From Patescibacteria group bacterium (GTDB taxonomy: Bacteria; Patescibacteriota; Patescibacteriia; Magasanikbacterales; GWA2-37-8), in assembly GCA_022710645.1 (NCBI GenBank), contig JAKLGL010000001.1, positions 167,426-231,425 of the forward strand: a stretch of 64,000 nucleotides of DNA, in the 5' to 3' direction. The position numbers were made by a program, and so were the translations under genes. The notes under the pieces were generated by a model. The model saw only the letters and a list, made by a program, of their open reading frames with translations. It searched no databases and was not told the origin of the DNA. Below are positions 346 through 52,763 of the stretch, piece by piece (positions within the stretch are counted from its first letter, which is position 1; each line of letters begins with the position of its first letter).

Positions 346-3300
346 TTAGCTATTAGGGCCTCGCAGCACTTGTGAAACAGCGTCCTTGACCATTTCCATA
401 TATTTATCCAACTTACCGCCTTTTTTCAGATAATCTTCAGCTTCTTTGATAGCTTCCAAAGCTCCATCATTATCGGAATTTCTCTTTATCATTTCCATTT
501 TCACCACAAAATCATTGACTTTCTCTTTATCCAAAGGAACACCTTTTTCATTGGCTTTTTCCAAAGCCCGAGAAAGTTTTTCCAAAGCTTTGATTTCTTT
601 TTGGATATTAAACGATTCTTTTTCCGCATCTACGGAACGAATGAAATCAACTTCTTTTTGTTTTTCTTCCAGATATTTATAAGCATCTTCAAAAGCTTTG
701 GCGGTTTGTTTTTCCGCCAAGGACAAAGAAATTTCAGCAGCTCTATTGTCTAAAGCTCCGGCCGTTGCTTTCATCCTTTCCGTTTTAATTTCTTTCAACT
801 TATTCGCTTCTTCTTGTTCTGCGGCATATCTGGCCACTTCTTCTTTGGCTTTTATTTCCGCATCATGAGCTTCCTGACGGATAGCGTCCAATTTGGCTCT
901 GTCGGCCGGATCTATGGGTTTAGCCATAACTTCATCCACTGTTTTCTCTTTATTCAATATTCCCACCAATCCGACTTTTTCCGTTTTTTCAATTTCATTT
1001 TTCAGTTCTTCTATTCTTTTTACAGCTTTAAGATAATCGGCGCTATTTGTTTCTTTGGTCGCTGTATTCAATTTCAACAAAGCCTCTTGCACTTTATCTT
1101 CTCCGGCGCCGGAATAATCTTTAGCCCAACTTTGGGCTTCTTGGACATGTGGTAATTTCTTGAAAAAATCAATATTACTTTTATCCAAACTCTTGGAAGT
1201 TTTTTCAATCACATCTGTCAACGATGATTTGTCTTCCGGAGTATTTTTCAAAGAATCCTTTACCAAAGAAGCTTTTGCCAAAATGCTTTGACTTTTTTCA
1301 AGTTGTCTATTCAATTTACTCAAATTTTCCGGATCATCCACATAACGGCGTTGTAAATTTTTGAACATTTCATCTATTTCTTGTTGGCTTTGAGCTCTTT
1401 GCGTATCAAAACTTTTTTGCATTTCTTGCCATTTCATTTCACTGGCTTTGGCGTTTATTTCTTCTTGCGCAAAAGCTTTATCTATTTTTGCTTCTTCCGC
1501 TTGCATTTCCGCCAATTTTTCTTTTTCCAACAAAGCCCGGCCGGCCGCTTCTTTGGTGTCGGCTTCTTCCTGGATTTTATTTATGATTTCTTCATTACTC
1601 AAACCCAGAGAACGCATGGCGGCTTCTTTGTGCTCACCGGCTTTGGCTAAATTCTCATAATTTTCTGCAATCATTTGTTCGGTGGACAAATCCGCGTTAA
1701 CAGATTCGGCAGTCTGTCCTCCGCCGGTTTGATTTTCTATAATCTTGATATCGCTATCTATAGTTGCTTTGATATCATCAAGCATAGAAAGTGTGCTTTT
1801 GTAATTTGCCGGAACTTCATCTTCCTGCGCTTTAAGCAAAGCTGTTTTCAAATCTTTCAAACGTCCGGCCAAATTATCCGAACCTTCCACTTTGTGTTGC
1901 GAAACCACATTTTCCAAATCGTTTAATCTCTTATTTACAACATCCATTTTTTCAACAAATTTTTGAGCTTTGGCATCGCCAAAATCTTTTTGGATATCTT
2001 TCACGGTTTTCGAATAAATCTCATCCAACTCTTTTCTGTCCGCTTTATTGAACACAGATTTGTTTTCCGCTATTATTTCTTCTCCGGTCATTTTTGGCGA
2101 TTCGTTTTTTTCCAAAGACGTTTCTGTGGTAACTTTCGTTTGAGGAATTTCCACTTTAGGTTTCGGTATTTCCATTTTGTAAGTTTCCACATTATTCTCC
2201 GTAAAACTGCCGTCGGAATTCAAAACAATTTTCGCTTCCGGATTATAAATCAAACCTACGCTTTTGCCGTTTTTCCAAAGATTATTAATTTTCAAAAACT
2301 CTTTGGTTTTCTTTTCGATAAAATCATCCACATCACCCTCGTCTTTAAACCCAAATTTTTCCGGGTCAGCCTCTATCTGTCTTTTGAAGACATCATAATA
2401 TCCGTCGCCTTTATGAATAGTAGTGTCTATTTCTACCGGCTCCGGGGTTTCGGTTGTTTCGGGGATATCGGTTGGAGATAATTTTTCTTCAGCATAAAGA
2501 GGTTCTTCTTTTTCCCAAGGAAGTTTCATATCAATATCTTCATTATTTGGAGAAGTATCATTTTCCAATCCTTGCGCCATCAAAGTTCCCGAAGCCAAAA
2601 CCTCCGAACTAATTTTCCCGGACAATGAATCTATTTTTTCAGAAAGATTGGTAGAACCAAGTGTCAAACGATCAAAATTGGCGGCAAAATTATTCAAAGC
2701 TCCACCTTTTTCCAAAACTCCGTGTTCTGTCGCATTTTTTATATTTTCCAAAGTTTTTTCAATTATTCCGGCGCCTTCTTGATGTAATTCTCCAATAGCC
2801 AAACCGCCGATACCGGCGACTCGCAACAATACACCGCTGGCTTTGATAACATCAATCACTTTCTTGGTTGCAGTTTTTTCCTTATCAAGAACATTCAATT
2901 CTTTCAGGGTTTCATTAAAAGAACCGACAGTCAATTCTTTTAAAATTCCTTTGCGTGTTTCTCCACTGCTTTCTCGACGTCTGTTTTCTTTTCTTAATTT
3001 TAAATATTTTTCAGCCGCGGCCGCAGTTCCGTAAATAACACCGCGCAAAGCATATGTGCCTGTAGCGGTAGTCAAAGTATTCAGAAAATCTTTGGCAATG
3101 GAAACTCCGCTAACTTTATTTTTGGTATAATCGTCGACAATGTCGATAACGGCGGTTTGAGCTTGTTTTTCAGTATTACCTTTTTCACTGTCATATTGTT
3201 TAACCAATTTTTTCAATTTATCTTTCATTTCTTGTTTTTCTTTCGGACTACGATCGGATTTGTTGATTTCATAAAAAAGCTCGCGAGCTCTGGCGATAAA

Positions 3301-4770
3301 AGCCGTTTCTTCTTCTTTTTTCAAATTTTCTTTGCCGACAGTTTTATTTTTTTCCGATTGACGAAGTAAAGAAGCAAATTTTTCTTTTACATTGCCTTCT
3401 TCCATTTTATGTTTGTAATAATCAGCAATATCCCCTTTTCCACCTATAGCTCTGACCAAATCTGTGGCAAATTTAACACCTAAAACCGAAGTGATTGATT
3501 TGTAAGCTGTTTCAGCAGCCATATCTCTGACTTCTTCTTTTTTCAAAACTTCTTTACTCTTTCCAAAAACCTCTTTTGTTTTATTCCAAATTTTTCCAAA
3601 AAAGCCTTTCTTTTCTTCTGTCGGTAAAACAGCTTTCTCCGGAGCGACTATGGTTTTGTCAGTGATATCTTTTAAATCCGCCAAAAAAGCCGTGCGCGCT
3701 TTTTCAAAATCCCCTCGCTCTTCATCATCTTCGGCTTTTTCAACCAAAACCAAATAAGCCTTTGCCGTATCTATGAAATCGGCAGGCATGCTTTTCGCTT
3801 CTTCACCAGAAATATATTTTTGTATTTCTTTTTTGAAAATACTTGCTTCGTTTTTCAAAATTTCCAAGTCGTTTTCCTTGGTTTTTACAGTTTCAATTTT
3901 TATCTCCGGTTTTGCTTCAGGTACGACTTTGATTTCCGGTTCGGGTTTTTCTTCTTTGGCAACAACTTTGACCACAGGTTTGACCTCTTCGACTACTTGC
4001 TGAATTTCTTTTTCTTCTTCTTTTGCCGGAATCTTTTCTTGCGGTTGAACTTCTTCTTGCGGTTTTTCAACGGTTTCAACCGTGGCTAAATTGCGAATTG
4101 ATTCTTGATTTTGCACCAATTCAGCACTTAATCTCTGTAAGGTTTTTTCCATATTTTCCGCTTTTTCTTCACTCTTTACGGAAAGCAGAGTTTCTTGAGC
4201 TTGTTTCAAAGCTTTTTCTATCTTGGTATAATTATTGATGATTTTTCTCTCCGTTTCTTTCATTTCTTCTTTCTTTTTACCTTCGGATAATTTGGCGATT
4301 TCTTCGCCGTGTTTCTCGAACTTATCTCCAAACTCCGCAAATTTTTTTGTTAAATTGTTTTTTATTTCTTCCAATTTTTTCATTTTTTCTTCTTCCGCTT
4401 TTTGAGCGTTTTCTTTTTCTTTATCATTGGTTTCCGTCTTTTCCATTTCTTTCAATGCAATATTCTGAGCCGCTTCCCATAGATAACCGGCCGCTTCGCC
4501 ATAAGCTTTTACCGCGTCTTCCTTTTTTATTTCGGCCAAAATTCTTACGGCTTCGGAATTTTTATCCGCCATATCTTTTAGAGTTTTTCTAGCGCTGTCA
4601 TTTCTTTCTTTATCGGATTTTCTAACACCTTTTTTACCTTCAAAATTTTTCTCTTTGAACTTTTCTAACGCTATCAAAAAAACCGCTTCCTGTCTTTTGT
4701 CGGAAAAAATCTTTTTTGTTTCCGGAACACCACCGCCGCGTTCCGCTTTTATAGTATTGTTAGCTGGCAT
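346..4770 (-). CDS. giant K/E-rich coiled-coil protein (1474 aa), no recognisable enzymatic domain
   Basis: uninterrupted 4.4-kb ORF; heptad-like K/E-rich sequence with proline-rich spacers (EKPEPEIKVVPEAKPEIK); no signal peptide or TM helix seen. Confidence 0.8.
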   Translation of the reverse strand: MPANNTIKAERGGGVPETKKIFSDKRQEAVFLIALEKFKEKNFEGKKGVRKSDKERNDSARKTLKDMADKNSEAVRILAEIKKEDAVKAYGEAAGYLWEAAQNIALKEMEKTETNDKEKENAQKAEEEKMKKLEEIKNNLTKKFAEFGDKFEKHGEEIAKLSEGKKKEEMKETERKIINNYTKIEKALKQAQETLLSVKSEEKAENMEKTLQRLSAELVQNQESIRNLATVETVEKPQEEVQPQEKIPAKEEEKEIQQVVEEVKPVVKVVAKEEKPEPEIKVVPEAKPEIKIETVKTKENDLEILKNEASIFKKEIQKYISGEEAKSMPADFIDTAKAYLVLVEKAEDDEERGDFEKARTAFLADLKDITDKTIVAPEKAVLPTEEKKGFFGKIWNKTKEVFGKSKEVLKKEEVRDMAAETAYKSITSVLGVKFATDLVRAIGGKGDIADYYKHKMEEGNVKEKFASLLRQSEKNKTVGKENLKKEEETAFIARARELFYEINKSDRSPKEKQEMKDKLKKLVKQYDSEKGNTEKQAQTAVIDIVDDYTKNKVSGVSIAKDFLNTLTTATGTYALRGVIYGTAAAAEKYLKLRKENRRRESSGETRKGILKELTVGSFNETLKELNVLDKEKTATKKVIDVIKASGVLLRVAGIGGLAIGELHQEGAGIIEKTLENIKNATEHGVLEKGGALNNFAANFDRLTLGSTNLSEKIDSLSGKISSEVLASGTLMAQGLENDTSPNNEDIDMKLPWEKEEPLYAEEKLSPTDIPETTETPEPVEIDTTIHKGDGYYDVFKRQIEADPEKFGFKDEGDVDDFIEKKTKEFLKINNLWKNGKSVGLIYNPEAKIVLNSDGSFTENNVETYKMEIPKPKVEIPQTKVTTETSLEKNESPKMTGEEIIAENKSVFNKADRKELDEIYSKTVKDIQKDFGDAKAQKFVEKMDVVNKRLNDLENVVSQHKVEGSDNLAGRLKDLKTALLKAQEDEVPANYKSTLSMLDDIKATIDSDIKIIENQTGGGQTAESVNADLSTEQMIAENYENLAKAGEHKEAAMRSLGLSNEEIINKIQEEADTKEAAGRALLEKEKLAEMQAEEAKIDKAFAQEEINAKASEMKWQEMQKSFDTQRAQSQQEIDEMFKNLQRRYVDDPENLSKLNRQLEKSQSILAKASLVKDSLKNTPEDKSSLTDVIEKTSKSLDKSNIDFFKKLPHVQEAQSWAKDYSGAGEDKVQEALLKLNTATKETNSADYLKAVKRIEELKNEIEKTEKVGLVGILNKEKTVDEVMAKPIDPADRAKLDAIRQEAHDAEIKAKEEVARYAAEQEEANKLKEIKTERMKATAGALDNRAAEISLSLAEKQTAKAFEDAYKYLEEKQKEVDFIRSVDAEKESFNIQKEIKALEKLSRALEKANEKGVPLDKEKVNDFVVKMEMIKRNSDNDGALEAIKEAEDYLKKGGKLDKYMEMVKDAVSQVLRGPNS

Positions 4771-5964: not shown

Positions 5965-7062
5965 TTATTTAAAAATATTTTCTTTTATTTGGGCTTCCAA
6001 ATCCAAAACTTTGCCTCGTCTGAGTACTTTCAAACGGGCTTGTTCTCCTCTCAGATTATACCACAAATTTTCATTTTCAACAATTTGTCCGTTGATTTCC
6101 AAAATTATATCTCCTTTTTGTAATTTTGAATCATTTTTCAAGACACCGGTCACTAAAAAGCCTTTGACAACACCTCCGTCAGTTATCAAAATCTGCTCTG
6201 ACGAATACCATCCTTCTATAGAAAAAGTCGGATAGATTATTTGTTGTTTATTCAAAACTCCCGGTAATACCCTGTTTACATAGACACTACCGATAACTTC
6301 ATTATTTTCATTTAAAAAACCGAGAAATCTGCCTTGGTTATTTAATACCAAAGAACCGGCAGGAGCATTTTTATTTTCCAAAGTTCTAACTTTCATCGGC
6401 ACGGAATCCAGATGAGGCTTAACAGTTAAAGAATATTCGTCAGCTAAAAAATTATAACGCCAAGAATTATTTTGATACACAAAAACTTGTTCTCCCAATT
6501 TTTCATTTTCCGAAAAACCTATAACTTTAAACTGTTCGTTTTTTATTTCCGTTTCTCCGCTTTTTGTTAGGCCGCGTATTTTGAAATAAACTATTTTAGT
6601 CAACTTGTCGTAAAGTAATTTTTCAATTTTATAAGTCCTACCTTCATTATTAACCGCCGTCCAAGTGATAAAATTGTTTGATTTTTTTTCATCCGACAAA
6701 TACATAGCAAGCCAACCGTCGCTTCCGACCAACGCAGCTTCGCCCAATTTTGATTGTGAATTCAAAAAAGACACTTCTCCGGATTTTTGAGAGTTTTCAT
6801 AAACAGACATTATTTTTTGCGAAGTTTCTTTTTTGATAAATTCTTCCATCTCCACCTTTTGACTACTTCTATCAACTTGAGAAACCAACCAATAATTTCC
6901 ACCTCCCAAATCCGGCCAGATCCAACCCACAGTCATAGCAGCTCCGGTCAAACCGCCTATGAGACCGAAAAATATAGACAAAAAAATCAAACCTAACCTT
7001 TGCCATAACTGATGAAGGGATATACTGCAAGAAGGATTTGGTAGATGAGGAGGATGTGACAT
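5965..7062 (-). CDS. membrane-anchored PDZ-domain protein (HtrA-like fold; catalytic His not evident)
   Basis: N-terminal TM; C-terminal PDZ-like GDIILEINGQIV...; central region loosely trypsin-like (PAGSLVLNNQGRFLGF). Confidence 0.6.
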   Translation of the reverse strand: MSHPPHLPNPSCSISLHQLWQRLGLIFLSIFFGLIGGLTGAAMTVGWIWPDLGGGNYWLVSQVDRSSQKVEMEEFIKKETSQKIMSVYENSQKSGEVSFLNSQSKLGEAALVGSDGWLAMYLSDEKKSNNFITWTAVNNEGRTYKIEKLLYDKLTKIVYFKIRGLTKSGETEIKNEQFKVIGFSENEKLGEQVFVYQNNSWRYNFLADEYSLTVKPHLDSVPMKVRTLENKNAPAGSLVLNNQGRFLGFLNENNEVIGSVYVNRVLPGVLNKQQIIYPTFSIEGWYSSEQILITDGGVVKGFLVTGVLKNDSKLQKGDIILEINGQIVENENLWYNLRGEQARLKVLRRGKVLDLEAQIKENIFK

Positions 7063-7167
7063 AAAAATAGTTGAAAGTTTGTAAAGTTTGTAAAGTTTGT
7101 AAAGTTTCCAAAAAGAAATAGTGGTTACTTTATAAACTTTATGAACTTTATAACTTTATGAACTTCG
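7063..7167. repeat. tandem 10-bp repeats (GTTTGTAAAG x3, then CTTTATAAACTTTATGAACTTTATAACTTTATGAACTT)
   Basis: direct tandem copies visible in the sequence; member of the AAGTYYATAAAGT-type intergenic repeat family. Confidence 0.8.
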
Positions 7168-7959
7168 TCATTTCCATTTAACTAAAAACAAAAAACCGAT
7201 AAATAAAATAAAATTTATAATCAAAAAAATATTCTGTTTGCGCCAATTGATTCCATCTTTACTGAGATTAAAACGAACCATCAACCAAAAAACATACCAA
7301 AACCAAACCACTATCAAGCCGTTTACCAAAAACCCGAGCGGCCATAACCAAAGCGCAAATGAAAGTTCCAAAAAAGTAAAAAAACAAGCAATAACACTCC
7401 ACCATAAACGATCTTTATTTTCCAGTCCGTATTCTCTCCACCACCAATATGAAATAGAAGAAGTGATAAGAGACGCCAAAATCAAACCTAACCAAAAATA
7501 ATTAAAACTTATCAACTGAAAAGAAGATCCGGCATACAATGAACTCCAAAGTAACGCCAAACCGAAAACATCCATCAGTAAAAGCCAACGACGATAAGGT
7601 TTTATGACAAAGTTAATAACTCCCGGTTCACTTTTGGTCGGTAAAAGCCAAAAACTGACTCCGGAAAAAATAACAAATAAAGCCACAGTCAAAGTTAACG
7701 CCTGACCCCACTCCATAAAGATGAGAGATAACAACACCCCGACGTTAAAGAAAAGAAGTGAAATAAAATGACGTAAACGAGAAAGCTCCTTCGGATAATA
7801 AACCAGACGGATAAAGAAAATCCACAAAACAGTCCTTAAAACAAACCAAGCTAAAAGAGTTTGCCAATGCCCCAATCTAAACAACCCCCAAAACATAACC
7901 AAATTGGCTATAACATCTATAAAAGCCGCTAATTTGGGATGAAAAGAAATATTTTTCAT
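7168..7959 (-). CDS. polytopic integral membrane protein (about 8 TM, Trp-rich)
   Basis: hydrophobic segments throughout; ORF of 263 aa. Confidence 0.65.
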   Translation of the reverse strand: MKNISFHPKLAAFIDVIANLVMFWGLFRLGHWQTLLAWFVLRTVLWIFFIRLVYYPKELSRLRHFISLLFFNVGVLLSLIFMEWGQALTLTVALFVIFSGVSFWLLPTKSEPGVINFVIKPYRRWLLLMDVFGLALLWSSLYAGSSFQLISFNYFWLGLILASLITSSISYWWWREYGLENKDRLWWSVIACFFTFLELSFALWLWPLGFLVNGLIVVWFWYVFWLMVRFNLSKDGINWRKQNIFLIINFILFIGFLFLVKWK

Positions 7960-8676: not shown

Positions 8677-9067
8677 GGGGATGTTTGGTTTCGACAAAAG
8701 TTCCTTGACAAGCTGGCATACCGGGGCGGCATTTGGCCTCGATAAAAACCAAATGCATCAAATAAGTGCCAACTTATTTTCAAAAGCCAGAGCAATATTC
8801 GCTAACACGATGAGCTTTGCGCCTGCCATGGCCTAAATAAGGCTTCATGCGCCATCGTGCCGATAATACGAAGTAGTCGGTTGCGGTGTCACTTACTTCG
8901 CGTAGGTTCAAATTCGTACCGACGGATTTGTTCCGAAGGCATTTCGGTTAAGCGTTAAAAATTCCGTTGCCCCATTATTTTAACGCCGAAAACTACCGGG
9001 ACAACTATGTATGTAGAAGGTTTGTTGAAAACTTTTTGGACGCGAGTTCGACTCTCGCCATCTCCAC
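8677..9067 (+). ncRNA. ssrA: tmRNA (ssrA)
   Basis: 5' GGGGAUGUUUGGUUUCGAC and 3' GGACGCGAGUUCGACUCUCGCCAUCUCCA tRNA-like ends that base-pair as an acceptor stem; internal tag frame ANTMSFAPAMA-stop; adjacent to smpB. Confidence 0.85.
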
Positions 9068-9167
9068 GGTCGCTTTCGCGACTAGTAAAAAGTTCATAAA
9101 GTTCATAAAGTTCCGATAAATTGATTTTATAAACTTTATAACTTTAAAAACTTTATAAACTCCGCTT

Positions 9168-19451: not shown

Positions 19452-20597
19452 TTATACTATTTTTCGCAACGCCAATCCTATAGCTACCGACATTCTCGGA
19501 CCGATTTCATTGAGCACTGGTTTGAGTTTTTCTTGATGGACAACTCTGGCCCACGGATCTCCCAAAAAACAACGTATTTGAAATTTCTCCGCTAAAAACT
19601 GGGCTATATAAGGCAAGCTTGCCGCTCCGCCGGTCAAAATTATTTTTTCCGGTTTTTTTTGTTCATTACCCGTTTGTCGCAAATAAACATCAAAACCGTA
19701 TTCTATTTGTTTAACAATAGGATCGATAACCGGGTTAAGCAATGCTAAAAATTTATCTTTATCCAAAGAATTTTTTCCACTCCCGGATTGAAAATGAAAT
19801 ATGTCTGTTTTAATCTGTTCAATTTCTTCATTTTCCACTCCCAAAGTTTTTTGTAATAAAACATCTATCTTATCCCCTCCCAAAGTCAAAGAATGGTGAG
19901 TTATCGGCGCACCCTGATCAATGATAAAAAAATTCGTTCGTTCCGCGCCCATATCTATCAACATAGTGACAGCCGTATCACGTCCGACCAAAGAACGAGC
20001 CAAAGCGACTGATTCCGGCTCCAAAGCTTGGAGCGTTAAACCGGCTTTGGTAAAAACTTGAGTATAAAAAGTCACCAATTTTTTGGAAACAGCGTTAACA
20101 ATAACTTTCTGATTTTTATCTCCGTTCTTGATAATCTGATAATCGAGAACCATTTCTTCCACCGGAAGAGGCAATAATTTTTTGATTTCCGCTTTCAAAA
20201 CCGCATCAAATTCTTTTCTGTCCAATTGAGGCAAATTGACAACTGTATGAAAAACAGCGGAAATCGGTAAACTGGCGGTGGCTAATTTTGAAACAGTTTT
20301 TGCCATTTTACAAACAGCTTTCAAATCAGCGGCGTAATTTTCTATTTGTTTAGGATCTTGCGCTTCCGGTAAATCTTGCAGTCGCAATTCTTTACCCGTA
20401 ACAATATTTTTACTTTTTAATAAATCCTCGACTGTTTTTTCCGTCGGAGCAAAAAGCTTATGGATATTTTTACGTTCCGAACCATAACCATAGGTAAAAA
20501 GAACCGGACGATTTTTTTCCTGTTTCAATTCAACCAATTTTATACCGTGCGCACCCAAATCCACCCCCAAATAGGATTTTGGTTTAGAAAATAACAT
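19452..20597 (-). CDS. pilM: type IV pilus assembly protein PilM (actin-like ATPase fold)
   Basis: SYLGVDLGAHGIKLVELK N-terminus, ...ILTGGAASLP, C-terminal ...IGLALRKIV. Confidence 0.8.
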   Translation of the reverse strand: MLFSKPKSYLGVDLGAHGIKLVELKQEKNRPVLFTYGYGSERKNIHKLFAPTEKTVEDLLKSKNIVTGKELRLQDLPEAQDPKQIENYAADLKAVCKMAKTVSKLATASLPISAVFHTVVNLPQLDRKEFDAVLKAEIKKLLPLPVEEMVLDYQIIKNGDKNQKVIVNAVSKKLVTFYTQVFTKAGLTLQALEPESVALARSLVGRDTAVTMLIDMGAERTNFFIIDQGAPITHHSLTLGGDKIDVLLQKTLGVENEEIEQIKTDIFHFQSGSGKNSLDKDKFLALLNPVIDPIVKQIEYGFDVYLRQTGNEQKKPEKIILTGGAASLPYIAQFLAEKFQIRCFLGDPWARVVHQEKLKPVLNEIGPRMSVAIGLALRKIV

Positions 20598-20899
20598 AAT
20601 TAAAAGTCTATAAAGTTAAAAAGTCTTTAAAGTCTACAAAGTCACGACTTGATGGACGTTATAGACTTTATGGACTTTTGACTTAAATATTATACCATAT
20701 TTTAATGTCAAAAACCACTAGGGTTGAAAAAGTTGTTAAAATAAGATAAAATTCCAATGGTTAAACTCTAAATCCTAAGCCCTAAATTCTAAACAATATC
20801 CAATATTTAATATTCAATATCAAAAAATTTGAAATTTGAAATTCAATATTGTTTAGAGATTAGAAATTAGAGCTTAGAATTTAAATCATACTCTAAAAT
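20598..20899. repeat. composite intergenic repeat region: AAGTCTATAAAGT-family units (20602-20690) plus a long AT-rich palindrome (20750-20899)
   Basis: ctaaacaatatccaatatttaatattcaatatcaaaaaatttgaaatttgaaattcaatattgtttagag is a near-perfect palindrome; 20611-20690 is homologous to 36268-36345. Confidence 0.75.
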
Positions 20900-29831: not shown

Positions 29832-29902
29832 TCCGAGGTGGTCTAATGGTAGGACAGCAGACTCTGAATCTGCTTATCTTGGTTCGAGTCCAAGCCTCGG
29901 AA
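29832..29902 (+). tRNA. tRNA-Gln (anticodon CTG)
   Basis: TCCGAGGTGGTCTAATGGTAGGACAGCAGACTCTGAATCTGCTTATCTTGGTTCGAGTCCAAGCCTCGGAA cloverleaf; anticodon loop CTCTGAA. Confidence 0.75.
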
Positions 29903-30061
29903 CGAAGTGTAGAGGGAGCGACACAATAATTTGTGTCGCGTTTGGACGAGAACGCCGGAACGATGTTTTGCGAGTTTATTGACGAGCAAAACCGTGAGGC
30001 GGTGGCCAGACAAAATTTTCGGAAGAAAATTTTAGTCGCGGCCGATTCCAAGCCTCGGAAC
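29903..30061 (+). repeat. tRNA-Gln 3'-flank element: ~140-nt GC-rich structured core homologous to 11006-11160, then a 16-nt direct repeat of the tRNA-Gln 3' end
   Basis: ccgtgaggcggtggccagacaaaattttcggaagaaaattttagtcgcggccga is shared with the tRNA-Asp-linked copy; the repeat ttccaagcctcggaac at 30046-30061 matches the tRNA 3' end. Confidence 0.8.
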
Positions 30062-30114
30062 AAACTTATTTAAATCATAATCTTAATATAAACACACTAA
30101 TAATTAAAAATTAT

Positions 30115-30543
30115 ATGCAACTACAAATAAACGACAAAACTAAAAAATTTCTAAATGTGTTTTTATCTGTAATCACCATTTCAATGATTGTGTTTATTGG
30201 TATAGTAACAATACAACTATTGAATATTTATTTTCCAAATTTAAAATATTTAATTCTACAATCTTTTTTTCTATTATTAATTCTTATCTTTATTTATTTT
30301 TGGTTTAAATTATTAAAAAAGAATCCTGCAAAAACTTTAATATTTACAATTCTTTTTATTGTGGTTATTTTTTCAAGTTATATATTTTATATGTATAAGC
30401 AATATCCTGAATATTGCACAAGAAAATATTTTTGGACTAAACAAGACTGTCCTTCAGGATGCTCATTACAAATAGTTGGATTTACAGGAGAATCAAACGG
30501 ACTTCACGCAGAAATTGCCGAATGTTTACCGATTGATAAATAA
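30115..30543 (+). CDS. small membrane protein with a Cys-rich C-terminus, in a very AT-rich segment
   Basis: TM helices plus C..C..C..C C-terminal region; the local GC is much lower than in flanking genes. Confidence 0.5.
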   Translation: MQLQINDKTKKFLNVFLSVITISMIVFIGIVTIQLLNIYFPNLKYLILQSFFLLLILIFIYFWFKLLKKNPAKTLIFTILFIVVIFSSYIFYMYKQYPEYCTRKYFWTKQDCPSGCSLQIVGFTGESNGLHAEIAECLPIDK

Positions 30544-30640
30544 AAAGATTATTTAACTTTACTACTTAAAAATAAAAACCCAGACAAGTCAATGTTTGCG
30601 GTTTTTTATTTTCCCCTTTTTATGCTATAATACCGCCTGT

Positions 30641-50080: not shown

Positions 50081-50491
50081 ATGAAATTAACTATTTATTC
50101 CGACGGTGGGGCGCGAGGTAATCCCGGTCCGGCTGCCGCAGGCATAGTAATCAAAGATGAAACCGGAAAAAATCTCGACGCTTTTGGAGAATACCTCGGA
50201 GAGCAAACAAATAACTTCGCCGAATACAGCGCCCTCATTGCCGGACTCAAGCGGGCGTATGAACTTGGTGGTACGGAAATAGAATGTATTTTGGATAGCG
50301 ATCTTATTGTCAACCAAATGAAAGGTCTTTTCAAAGTCAAAGAACCGACTTTGCAAAAACTTTTTATTCAAGCTTATAATAGCGCGTCTAAATTCAGAAA
50401 AGTCTCTTATCGCCACACTCCTCGAGAAAATAATAAAGAAGCAGACAGATTGGTCAATGAAACTTTGGATAAACAAGCGATATTAAAATAA
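50081..50491 (+). CDS. rnhA: ribonuclease H (type 1)
   Basis: YSDGGARGNPGPAAAGIVI...NNFAEYSALIAGL...DSDLIVNQ. Confidence 0.9.
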   Translation: MKLTIYSDGGARGNPGPAAAGIVIKDETGKNLDAFGEYLGEQTNNFAEYSALIAGLKRAYELGGTEIECILDSDLIVNQMKGLFKVKEPTLQKLFIQAYNSASKFRKVSYRHTPRENNKEADRLVNETLDKQAILK

Positions 50492-52010: not shown

Positions 52011-52195
52011 TGCAGGGAGTGCAGGAATACTCACGTCGTCCCCGCCTAAACGGGTCCTCCTTGGAAAACCTTCTGGTTTTCCAATACCTTTCCTCCAAAA
52101 AGAGAAACCTTTGTCGGTTTCTCCCTTCCCTATTCGATTCCTACATACTCCAAAATAAATTAAAATCCACCCATTTGGGGTGGATTTTAATTTAG
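52011..52195 (-). repeat. tRNA-Trp 3'-flank insert: hairpin, ~165-nt sequence of unknown function, 17-nt direct repeat of the tRNA-Trp 3' end, terminator hairpin
   Basis: gcagggagtgcaggaat occurs at 52011-52027 and at 52195-52211, the latter inside the tRNA. Confidence 0.75.
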
Positions 52196-52266
52196 CAGGG
52201 AGTGCAGGAATCGAACCCGCGCTAAAGGTTTTGGAGACCCTTGTACTACCATTATACGAACTCCCT
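52196..52266 (-). tRNA. tRNA-Trp (anticodon CCA)
   Basis: reverse complement AGGGAGTTCGTATAATGGTAGTACAAGGGTCTCCAAAACCTTTAGCGCGGGTTCGATTCCTGCACTCCCTG folds as a cloverleaf. Confidence 0.75.
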
Positions 52267-52470: not shown

Positions 52471-52502
52471 ACAAATATAAATTATTTTTTAAATTAACTC
52501 GG

Positions 52503-52614
52503 AGCCGTTGAGCGGATTTGAACCGCTGACCACCTCCTTACTCCCAAGCACTAGACCATCCGGGTCAGTGCGGGACTTCCGCATGGAGGTGCGGCATTTA
52601 CCCCTCATCATTTG
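52503..52614 (-). repeat. duplicated 3' half (~38 nt) of tRNA-Thr(GGT) plus a ~74-nt spacer; does not fold as a tRNA
   Basis: gagccgttgagcggatttgaaccgctgaccacctcctta occurs at 52503-52541 and again as the 3' half of the intact tRNA at 52614-52652. Confidence 0.75.
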
Positions 52615-52687
52615 AGCCGTTGAGCGGATTTGAACCGCTGACCACCTCCTTACCATGGAGGTGCTCTACCAACTGAGCTACAACGGC
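52615..52687 (-). tRNA. tRNA-Thr (anticodon GGT)
   Basis: reverse complement GCCGTTGTAGCTCAGTTGGTAGAGCACCTCCATGGTAAGGAGGTGGTCAGCGGTTCAAATCCGCTCAACGGCT; perfect cloverleaf. Confidence 0.8.
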
Positions 52688-52763
52688 ACAAATGGTGAGG
52701 GGCCAACTAAATTTTATTTCCTGTAACAATATTGCTACCGGGGTTACAACGGCACATATAACC

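Follow-up and report, generated by a model that had tools for sequence, protein, structure and literature searches.

A gene-less element of 143 nt (29904-30046, plus strand) lies directly behind the tRNA-Gln gene in a 64,000-nucleotide stretch, here called the window, of a Patescibacteria group bacterium of the Magasanikbacterales (GenBank assembly GCA_022710645.1, contig JAKLGL010000001.1, positions 167,426 to 231,425). The element is enclosed by two copies of the tRNA 3' end, and further copies of it were found behind other tRNA genes in this and other genomes of Patescibacteria. It is a structured nucleic acid whose pairs are kept by compensatory substitution beyond the level of the controls, and in closely related genomes it was precisely gained or lost. 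Among the explanations weighed below we favor, tentatively and as slightly less likely than not, that it is a copy of a family, termed type A, of integrative mini-elements of Patescibacteria that are non-autonomous, carry no open reading frame (ORF), and reside at tRNA 3' ends.

The tRNA-Gln(CTG) gene itself is intact (29832-29903, plus strand; ARAGORN, and 67.7 bits with the Rfam tRNA model). A repeat search showed that its last 15 nt, TCCAAGCCTCGGAAC, form the left direct repeat (29889-29903) and occur again, exactly, as the right direct repeat at 30047-30061, the latter comprising the T-stem 3' strand, the acceptor 3' strand, and the discriminator plus C. The original prediction, made from the letters alone, had put this repeat at 16 nt; 15 nt are exact, and the 16-mer is mismatched at its first base (shuffled sequences gave a mean of 0.06 matches). 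The element between the repeats carries no ORF, and its ends (GAAGTGTAGAGG... and ...AGTCGCGGCCGA) do not form terminal inverted repeats.

All parts of the element lie on the plus strand. It begins with the leader GAAGUGUAGAGGGA (29904-29917), identical in the related locus L091, whose GAGG is able in the fold to pair with CCUC of the repeated acceptor 3' strand and is a partial mimic of the acceptor 5' strand. The leader is followed by the hairpin P1 (29918-29939), with 9 bp and a 4-nt loop, and by UUUGG (29941-29945), a mimic of the T-stem 5' strand that pairs with CCAAG of the repeated tRNA end. Positions 29946-29964 hold the conserved junction ACGAGAA, the P2 5' strand CGCC, GGA, and ACG-AU at the base of P3; this segment is identical in both window copies and present in Saccharibacteria, Paceibacterota, and Magasanikbacteria, and it varies in L091, L030a, and L030c. 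Next come P3, a hairpin of variable sequence (29965-29992; pair counts), and CGU-GA-GGCG-GU (29993-30003; alignment and pair counts), which provides the 3' strands of P2b and P2 as well as the junction to P4. The P4 arm (30004-30043) reads GGCC-A-GAC-(AAAAUUUUC GGAA GAAAAUUUU)-A-GUC-GC-GGCC, and a T-loop-like GAU leads into the right repeat (30044-30061 together; repeat search).

This piece had been predicted to be the second copy of a structured element linked to tRNA genes, and the repeat analysis bears this out. A 54-nt core occurs exactly twice in the window and with no mismatch, at 29992-30045 on the plus strand and at 11022-11075 on the minus strand, as does an upstream 21-mer, GACGAGAACGCCGGAACGATG; the core was found in 0 of 100 shuffles, which rules out a chance repeat. 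The other copy (11011-11158, minus strand; covariance model (CM) match of 145 bits) is located downstream of tRNA-Asp(GTC) (11191-11265, minus strand; ARAGORN and Rfam), a gene with the consensus promoter TTGACA-17-TATAAT (11316..11288, minus strand). In this copy, an acceptor mimic GGGCGGA (11158-11152) precedes P1 (11150-11129), the T mimic UCGGG (11127-11123), the core, CGAGUCC, and an 8-nt spacer. Its right direct repeat (10964-11010, minus strand) consists of the tRNA-Asp 3' end (11010-10996) and a second terminator-like hairpin, and matches 11159-11205 over 47 nt with 91% identity (repeat family D18). The order at this locus is therefore tRNA, hairpin, element, tRNA-Asp 3' end again, and a near-identical hairpin again. 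An orthologous copy behind tRNA-Asp in L023, a relative with ~80% amino-acid identity, has a different P3 and other compensatory changes.

Both window copies are real, but the notion of a two-copy element was too narrow, as the element is limited neither to two copies nor to one genome. We found 14 copies of ~140-180 nt in 9 Patescibacteria genomes, behind tRNA-Gln, Asp, Val, Leu, Ala, and Ile. A scan with an exact 20-mer through one genome per species retrieved 11 loci, 5 of which were chance matches in high-GC genes; the 6 real copies belong to Paceibacterota (tRNA-Val), Magasanikbacteria (tRNA-Leu, tRNA-Asp), Saccharibacteria (tRNA-Ala), a Patescibacteria bin (tRNA-Ile), and an unclassified bin. 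With an 18-mer, 62 loci were obtained from JGI metagenomes; three contained the element (L030, with three units around tRNA-Val, and L070, at tRNA-Asp, were new, and L084 duplicates L015), and the rest were chance matches in high-GC coding DNA. The copy in L091 was located through synteny. In 23 sources, including the window, the covariance model recognized 14 distinct copies and nothing else. The flanks of the core match the adjacent tRNA in nearly all copies that follow a tRNA; those in L021 and L020 depart at their right ends, and L021, L020, and L070 are truncated or decayed. The window's Magasanikbacteria-type genome is also present in anaerobic-digester metagenomes. We found no account of such elements in full-text searches of the literature or in Rfam 15.

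Two of these loci deserve separate mention. The type A copy L019a (L019:1900-2100, minus strand) has no tRNA directly upstream and closely follows the 3' end of an ORF, the C-terminal sequence of which (...YYNCERKQWNRNKMSPVQYREHL) we take to resemble the tail of an rve-type (IS3/IS481) transposase; an insertion sequence (IS) may have separated this copy from its tRNA. On metagenome contig JACCDG010595442.1 (L030:10980-12384), three type A units lie within a cluster of tRNA genes (Val, Phe, Met, Gly), together with a type-B-like unit behind tRNA-Phe (repeat of 26 nt, 11 nt of which are flank) and another core behind tRNA-Gly, in total five elements linked to tRNA ends in 1.4 kb.

The secondary structure is well supported. 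Both window copies fold far better than shuffled sequences (z = -5.6 for the tRNA-Gln copy and -4.3 for the tRNA-Asp copy), and all copies share a common architecture. In the 5' part, the 9-bp P1 is followed by one base, the five bases that pair with the T-stem, the junction ACGAGAA, and P2 (CGCC/GGCG), inside which lie a GGA/GA internal loop and the variable hairpin P3; the 3' part consists of GU, the P4 arm, a T-loop-like (C)GAGU, and the T-stem 3' and acceptor 3' strands of the tRNA. Overall, P1 is succeeded by a three-way junction of P2/P3 and P4. The original prediction had proposed that the copies be folded jointly, and such a fold shows the covariation: in an alignment of 11 copies from 8 genomes, 96.7% of the pair cells are standard pairs, compared with 77% when partners were shuffled and 31-41% when partners were slid, and substitutions in both partners are seen in 23 of 30 pairs. 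Two-sided change affects 9 of 9 pairs in P1, with 100% of the cells paired, and 9 of 10 in the helix P2b+P3. Five of the seven P3 stem pairs differ between the two window copies and all are still paired, and P4 changes from GGCC/GGCC to GGUC/GACC in L091 and from GAC/GUC to GCC/GGC in other copies. In a strand test, G.U cells outnumbered A.C cells by 12 to 3, which favors the tRNA-sense strand as the folded one. Stable folds were also obtained with DNA energy parameters and on the opposite strand, so that a folded single-stranded DNA is a possible form as well.

Strong covariation around a conserved unpaired junction is the usual signature of a functional RNA. It raises the possibility, which we consider rather unlikely, that the element is a gene for a small tRNA-like RNA of benefit to the host, co-transcribed with the tRNA and cut by RNase Z/RNase P, with the tRNA-end repeat as its 3' arm; the product would be a stable structured RNA, e.g. 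a protein-binding or CCA-tailed one. The sense-strand G.U bias fits an RNA, the junction sequences are near-identical across three classes of the candidate phyla radiation (CPR), the tRNA-Asp copy has been kept in two species with compensatory changes, and the perfect 7-nt acceptor mimics of L019b and L020 would form a full acceptor-like stem. A host gene is nevertheless hard to recognize in an element that is absent at the same tRNA in L009, L090, L011, and L088, polymorphic within a population, placed behind different tRNAs in different genomes, and present in truncated or decayed form in L021, L020, and L070. Moreover, unrelated cores (types B, C, and D) occupy the same tRNA-end architecture, many copies (Val, Leu) miss the acceptor 5' strand, and no Rfam family matches.

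The last statement rests on searches of two depths: at the gathering score, only tRNAs and tmRNA were found in the whole window, and at E <= 10 likewise in the tRNA-Gln locus, the Trp/Thr cluster, and four related loci, where the best non-tRNA match reached 20.8 bits against a cutoff of 50 bits. Several known RNAs were rejected. None of the Rfam 15 families considered (ribozymes, group I/II introns, tmRNA, tRNA-like RNAs, leaders) gave a CM match at or near its gathering score. A hammerhead or other small ribozyme is contradicted by the junction strands ACGAGAA / GU / GAGU, which misfit the hammerhead core, and no ribozyme model matched. The likeness to signal recognition particle, 6S, or RNase P RNA is limited to motifs (the GGAA tetraloop; GGAGGAAAGG in type B), and both size and Rfam speak against it.

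A part of the structure is not fixed but specific for the neighboring tRNA, a feature that qualifies the prediction of a common structured element. In each copy, the five bases that precede the junction form pairs with the 3' strand of the T-stem of the upstream tRNA: on average 4.5 of the 5 are paired with a copy's own tRNA, versus 3.0 of 5 with the tRNAs of other copies. The closing helix matched to the tRNA is 94% paired versus 65% in shuffles, and its covariation score of 0.84 (versus 0.22) was reached by 0 of 500 shuffles. In some copies, a complement of the acceptor 3' strand also precedes P1; those of L019b and L020 are full 7-nt mimics and perfect complements. These acceptor mimics complement the 3' strand exactly instead of reproducing the 5' strand of the tRNA, and have A-U where the tRNA has G3.U70 (L020) or G4.U69 (L019b). 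The acceptor 5' strand is lacking in many copies (Val, Leu).

Short segments that covary with the target inside a conserved, covarying scaffold are reminiscent of programmable RNAs. The fold could in principle be a guide scaffold, similar to a bridge RNA or omega RNA, or a small ribozyme of a mobile element, with the tRNA-matched strands of 5-7 nt serving as programmable guides to the ends of tRNA genes. A scaffold of ~100-125 nt directly followed by 15-19 nt equal to the target, the absence of an ORF, the many different tRNAs targeted, and mimics that complement the 3' strand rather than copy the 5' strand would all agree with such a scheme. We nonetheless hold it to be quite unlikely: guide and target-like strands pair within one molecule, as those of known guide RNAs do not, no sign of rapid retargeting is apparent, the window has no gene for TnpB, IscB, IS110, or reverse transcriptase, and no ribozyme, intron, or omega-RNA-type family of Rfam matched even at E <= 10. 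A broader version, which we regard as unlikely, is that the elements are a new protein-less class of mobile elements in CPR bacteria, in which a conserved scaffold of RNA or folded single-stranded DNA bears short programmable strands that pair with the 3' end of a chosen tRNA gene. Equally unlikely to us is its extension, namely that the nucleic acid specifies, and perhaps catalyzes, the insertion, as an RNA-guided or ribozyme-type system of homing to tRNA ends, and that types A to D are one diverged superfamily.

Comparison of relatives at the tRNA-Gln locus, which we traced by the C39-peptidase gene upstream of the tRNA, speaks for mobility. The original prediction had suggested examining synteny at this site, and the related genomes indeed vary there: no element is present in L009 and L090, type A is absent in L088, a different element is found in L011 and L089, and the same element in L091. 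L090 and L091 encode an identical peptidase and have 3 mismatches in 2305 nt of flank (99.9% identical), and the sole difference at the site is the 158 bp that are present in L091 and absent in L090. Since the two differ by exactly this unit, the element was gained or lost precisely. The direct repeats of L091 are 19 nt long, CGAGTCCAAGCCTCGGAAC, from T-loop C56 to the tRNA end, and the empty site of L090 equals the filled site of L091 minus the insert and one repeat.

The nature of the right-hand repeat helps to discriminate between modes of insertion. Repeats extending from the T-loop to the tRNA end or slightly beyond it, with the insert exactly between them, are also what a transposon-like mechanism would leave, in which cuts staggered by ~15-47 nt (one in the T-loop, one past the tRNA end), in the manner of a casposase or Cas1, are followed by gap repair, so that the repeated tRNA end is a long target-site duplication and the tRNA stays intact. 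The 47-nt Asp repeat with its flanking hairpin and the 26-nt tRNA-Phe repeat of L030 with its 11-nt flank would then be duplicated target, and there is a precedent in the casposase of A. boonei, which recognizes the T-psi-C segment of tRNA-Pro and yields a 15-bp duplication (PMC5137440). This mechanism is hard to reconcile, however, with three loci whose right-hand copy does not match the end of the resident tRNA. The type B element of L011 and L089 has a left end that is reverse-complementary to the resident tRNA-Gln (T-loop, T-stem, and acceptor 3' strand), and the 3' copy at its right end belongs to another tRNA-Gln allele; in L011, this copy is followed by flank as in the element-free L009. 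Likewise, the mimic strands of the truncated type A copy in L021 match the resident tRNA-Ile and its right-hand 3' copy differs. Such differences are expected if the right-hand copy is a displaced host end. Furthermore, CGAGUCC at the 3' end of the core belongs to the element itself, being kept even where a spacer precedes the tRNA-specific part, the internal strands complementary to each tRNA would be left unexplained, the element has no terminal inverted repeats, and neither Cas1 nor another transposase is encoded in the window. Taken together, we give the transposon-like mechanism a rather slim chance. The observations agree with an element that arrives with a tRNA 3' end of its own, together with the matching strands, and displaces the end of the host.

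A decayed prophage or genomic island, of which attL and attR with bits of the arms persist without a function of their own, is very improbable as the origin of the element. The tRNA-Gln gene is an accretion hotspot with different islands in each relative and with displaced tRNA fragments, in keeping with such an origin, but independent deletions would not leave the same borders and a 140-nt core at six tRNAs in nine genomes, nor stems kept by compensatory change.

The tRNA-Gln gene itself has a complex history. Two distinct tRNA-Gln(CTG) alleles occur at this one locus, one in L009 and L089 and the other in the window, L011, L088, L090, L091, and L014; they differ by compensatory changes in the acceptor, D, anticodon, and T stems, and L011 and L089 retain displaced 3' fragments of a third allele type. 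From these sequences, a repeated replacement of the tRNA-Gln gene is suggested. In L088 (4826-5100), decayed 5' fragments of tRNA-Gln upstream of the intact gene are broken in the D-loop and anticodon loop by GC-rich palindromic mini-insertions of 42-54 nt (CCCGCCC...GGGCGGG), which look like a further family of insertions that target tRNAs.

The integrative mini-element that we favor would work as follows. It would recombine with the tRNA gene at the T-loop, through the shared CGAGUCC motif and with a recombinase encoded elsewhere. Types A and B have their repeat boundaries in the T-loop and type C has them in the anticodon loop, and these are reportedly the classical crossover sublocations of tRNA-targeting integrases. 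By carrying its own tRNA 3' end, the element would leave the tRNA intact, and the original 3' end of the host would be displaced to the right border. All loci examined have one gene per tRNA anticodon, so insertions at tRNA genes must preserve the tRNA. The element would be transcribed in the tRNA sense, probably by read-through: tRNA-Gln and the element are not separated by a terminator, and the hairpin that comes first behind tRNA-Asp has no U tail, which makes read-through plausible at both loci. In the transcript, the complementary strands may bind the displaced 3' fragment, and the tRNA-like acceptor/T helix so formed would close the junction; this capture would keep the duplicate from competing with the folding of a single-copy essential tRNA, and the helix would offer a defined substrate to the tRNA-processing enzymes. 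Excision as a circle, or a tandem arrangement, would be expected to give the junction core-CGAGTCCAAGCCTCGGAAC-GAAGTGTAGAGGG, and a circle or tandem junction that carries the tRNA 3' end would read ...GCG[GA]CCGAGTCCAAGCCTCGGAACGAAGTGTAGAGGG...

Several observations weigh against this model. No recombinase and no autonomous relative carrying the core came to light; the scans of genomes and metagenomes gave ORF-less copies only, and those of viral contigs gave none. An integrase site in double-stranded DNA needs no covarying three-way junction, so the fold is explained only by the presumed role as RNA. Spacers of 6-28 nt separate CGAGUCC from the tRNA-specific repeat in the tRNA-Asp, tRNA-Ala, and L070 copies and are not predicted by a simple crossover in the T-loop. 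The resident tRNAs of L011 and L089 diverge from the displaced allele along their full length, beyond the 3' end, which could mean a crossover at some other position or a replacement of the tRNA by a different process. The 47-nt Asp repeat and the 26-nt tRNA-Phe repeat of L030 include flank that is not tRNA, and the empty allele of L090 may equally have arisen by slippage or deletion between the 19-nt repeats. Lastly, only 14 copies are available, most of them retrieved with an exact 18-20-mer, and the conservation of this segment is partly due to the use of seeds to find them: the 18-20-mer is not invariant (AUGAG and GGAGC in L091, AAAUCGCAG in L030a), and since copies located independently of the seed vary in it, part of the apparent conservation comes from how the copies were found.

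A search for autonomous or phage-borne relatives in viral contigs retrieved nothing in a first scan and 16 chance loci without a CM match in a second, and no ORF-bearing relative was seen among the 14 copies or the viral contigs. By Pfam, the 64-kb window encodes no integrase, transposase, Cas1, TnpB, IscB, IS110, or reverse transcriptase; its sole RVT_3 match (50081-50491) is an RNase H. Two further candidates were discarded. An intron in the tRNA (group I or archaeal type) is incompatible with the complete upstream tRNA, the Asp repeat includes a terminator hairpin, and no intron model matched. A retroelement with a tRNA primer-binding site was rejected for now, as the complement omits CCA, the repeated end is without CCA, and the RVT_3 match is the RNase H.

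Directly behind the right repeat and outside the repeat-bounded element, an AT-rich segment (30062-30595, plus strand) was confirmed to be of atypical composition, as had been predicted. Its GC content of 22.5% is below that of every other 534-nt stretch of the window (mean 36.9%, sd 3.4%). The ORF within it (30115-30543, plus strand, 142 aa) is likewise the gene with the lowest GC content, 23.8% versus 36.8 ± 3.3% for 51 genes, and, in agreement with the predicted small Cys-rich membrane protein, its product has ~4 hydrophobic helices, with 4 Cys in its C-terminal part. It showed no Pfam match above threshold; a word-indexed search of 5.8 billion clusters matched the protein to itself only, and a full HMMER scan of 1.8 billion representatives yielded one homologue with 57% identity, on a contig of ~28% GC with no tRNA and no element nearby.

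The suggestion that this gene was acquired at an insertion hotspot agrees with its outlying GC content, its near-orphan status, and the variable slot between tRNA-Gln and EamA, but the gene is not part of the element. The content of this slot was different in every relative examined: a hydrolase gene in L009, only a type B element in L011, small ORFs in L088, a type B element with genes for a Cys-rich peptide, M23, C39, and NUDIX proteins in L089, three ORFs in L090, and FolD in L014. No third tRNA-Gln fragment bounding the ORF was detected on either strand with up to 3-5 substitutions. As the ORF lies outside the repeats and has no bounding fragment of its own, it was probably acquired horizontally at the same hotspot in an event separate from that of the element, and possibly an older one.

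Type A is not the only kind of insert at tRNA ends. Four of the six tRNA genes of the window have a downstream exact copy of their own 3' part (Asp, 15 nt within the 47-nt repeat; Gln, 15 nt; Trp, 17 nt; Thr-GGT, 40 nt from the anticodon loop), and in the CPR loci examined, a biased sample, such a repeat lies 73-190 nt downstream for 15 of 32 tRNAs and upstream for at most one. The inserts belong to at least four core types (A, B, C, and D) with a common plan: a complement of the tRNA end, a structured core, and a copy of the tRNA end. The type B element (52012-52151, minus strand; ~140 nt, fold z = -5.0) after tRNA-Trp (52195-52266) has the tRNA-Trp 3' end in reverse complement at its start and as an exact 17-nt copy at its finish (52028-52012); it is bracketed by a terminator hairpin before and a second terminator after it (52012-52194 region, minus strand), and its homologues are those behind tRNA-Gln in L011 and L089. 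Type C (52502-52592, minus strand; repeat family D6), after tRNA-Thr(GGT) (52614-52687), opens with 11 nt copied from the 5' strand of the anticodon stem; a 40-nt insert follows, and the last 40 nt repeat tRNA-Thr exactly, from its anticodon loop through its 3' end. In effect, type C is a partial tRNA duplicate with an insertion in the anticodon loop. In the neighboring spacer between tRNA-Thr(TGT) and tRNA-Thr(GGT) (52688-52763), GCCGTTGTA equals the first 9 nt of the downstream tRNA-Thr(GGT) and precedes a small hairpin; it may be a fragment of a tRNA 5' end.

The remainder of the window is largely of a housekeeping nature, with Pfam matches for SmpB, IF3, L35/L20, PpsA, LigA, pilus genes, CysS, DnaX, PurA, SecA/D/F, CTP synthase, a MurA-like protein, and others. 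At E <= 0.01, Pfam gave no match for an ORF of 1474 aa (346-4770, minus strand). Blocks of 9-nt tandem repeats (AAAGTTTGT-type) together with inverted and direct repeats of ~65 nt (I6, D3, D20) at 7062-7207 and 9086-9205 bracket a 2-kb smpB-tmRNA segment (tmRNA gene, 8677-9067). AT-rich repeats of ~90-117 nt, rich in CTAAA/TTTAG (D1, D5, I1, I2, I4), are located at 14944-15044, 19333-19460, and 20761-20886; one inverted pair, 84% complementary, flanks the PilM gene (19452-20597).

CPR/Patescibacteria genomes are tiny, and here a gene-less unit of 140-180 nt duplicates or replaces the tail of a tRNA and folds around the spare copy. If our model is true, site-specific integration into tRNA genes extends to a size and form not described before; if a guide-like reading were true, the strands would embody a new programmable targeting principle. 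The element furnishes a new, well-supported structured RNA motif for Rfam, accounts for many orphan tRNA 3' fragments in CPR assemblies, and flags tRNA-Gln as a hotspot that accumulates small islands, including orphan membrane-protein genes.

Among known mobile elements, IS200/IS605 and IS110 are not known to make a long direct repeat, whereas the present element has one, and their genes were not found in the 64-kb window. MITEs (miniature inverted-repeat transposable elements) have terminal inverted repeats and duplications of 2-10 bp and are not known to adapt internally to the insertion site. In common with MITEs and with Correia, RPE, and REP elements, the present element is short, ORF-less, multi-copy, highly structured, and non-autonomous, but it differs from MITEs in having no terminal inverted repeats, direct repeats of 15-47 nt, and site-specific pairing strands.

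With regard to RNA, tRNA-like domains occur in tmRNA, the YrlA/Y-RNA module, mascRNA, and viral tRNA-like structures. The element resembles these in that the two ends of a larger RNA form a coaxial helix like an acceptor/T arm, and it adjoins tRNA genes and is probably co-transcribed with them; in contrast, its T-loop is replaced by a ~100-nt junction, its acceptor mimic is often partial or absent, its helix is copied from the neighboring tRNA instead of being fixed, and no Rfam model matches. Archaeal tRNA genes may have introns at non-canonical positions or be split. Both these and the present loci show insertions at T-loop or anticodon-loop positions and tRNA fragments beside intact genes, but the host here is bacterial (tmRNA and SmpB are encoded in the window) and the interrupted copy is a partial duplicate downstream of an intact tRNA. 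No bulge-helix-bulge motif was noticed in the folds, although no search aimed at it was made.

Casposons are several kb long, encode Cas1 and PolB, and have terminal inverted repeats. That of Aciduliprofundum boonei recognizes the T-psi-C region of tRNA-Pro and produces a 15-bp duplication that lies mostly outside the tRNA, with a 5-bp overlap (PMC5137440). Both casposons and the present element target the T-psi-C/3'-end region of tRNA genes and have an unusually long border repeat; the element differs in having no Cas1, PolB, or inverted repeats and in a repeat that covers the T-loop to the tRNA end.

The closest comparison is with tRNA-targeting integrative elements and their integrase-less derivatives, the cis-mobilizable elements (CIMEs) flanked by attL and attR (PMC5704250). 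Shared features are the site at the tRNA 3' end, the direct repeats of a tRNA 3' segment (15 nt for Gln, 47 nt for Asp, and 19 nt for L091) that start in the T-loop or anticodon loop, the intact tRNA, the accretion of inserts at one site, and the polymorphism in presence or absence. Unlike those elements, the present ones measure 140-180 nt, have no gene, and have no known cognate integrase or autonomous relative, none having been found in the 64-kb window, the 14 copies, or the viral contigs. Also distinct from them are the covarying three-way junction, the strands complementary to the tRNA, and the combination of one core with many tRNA species.

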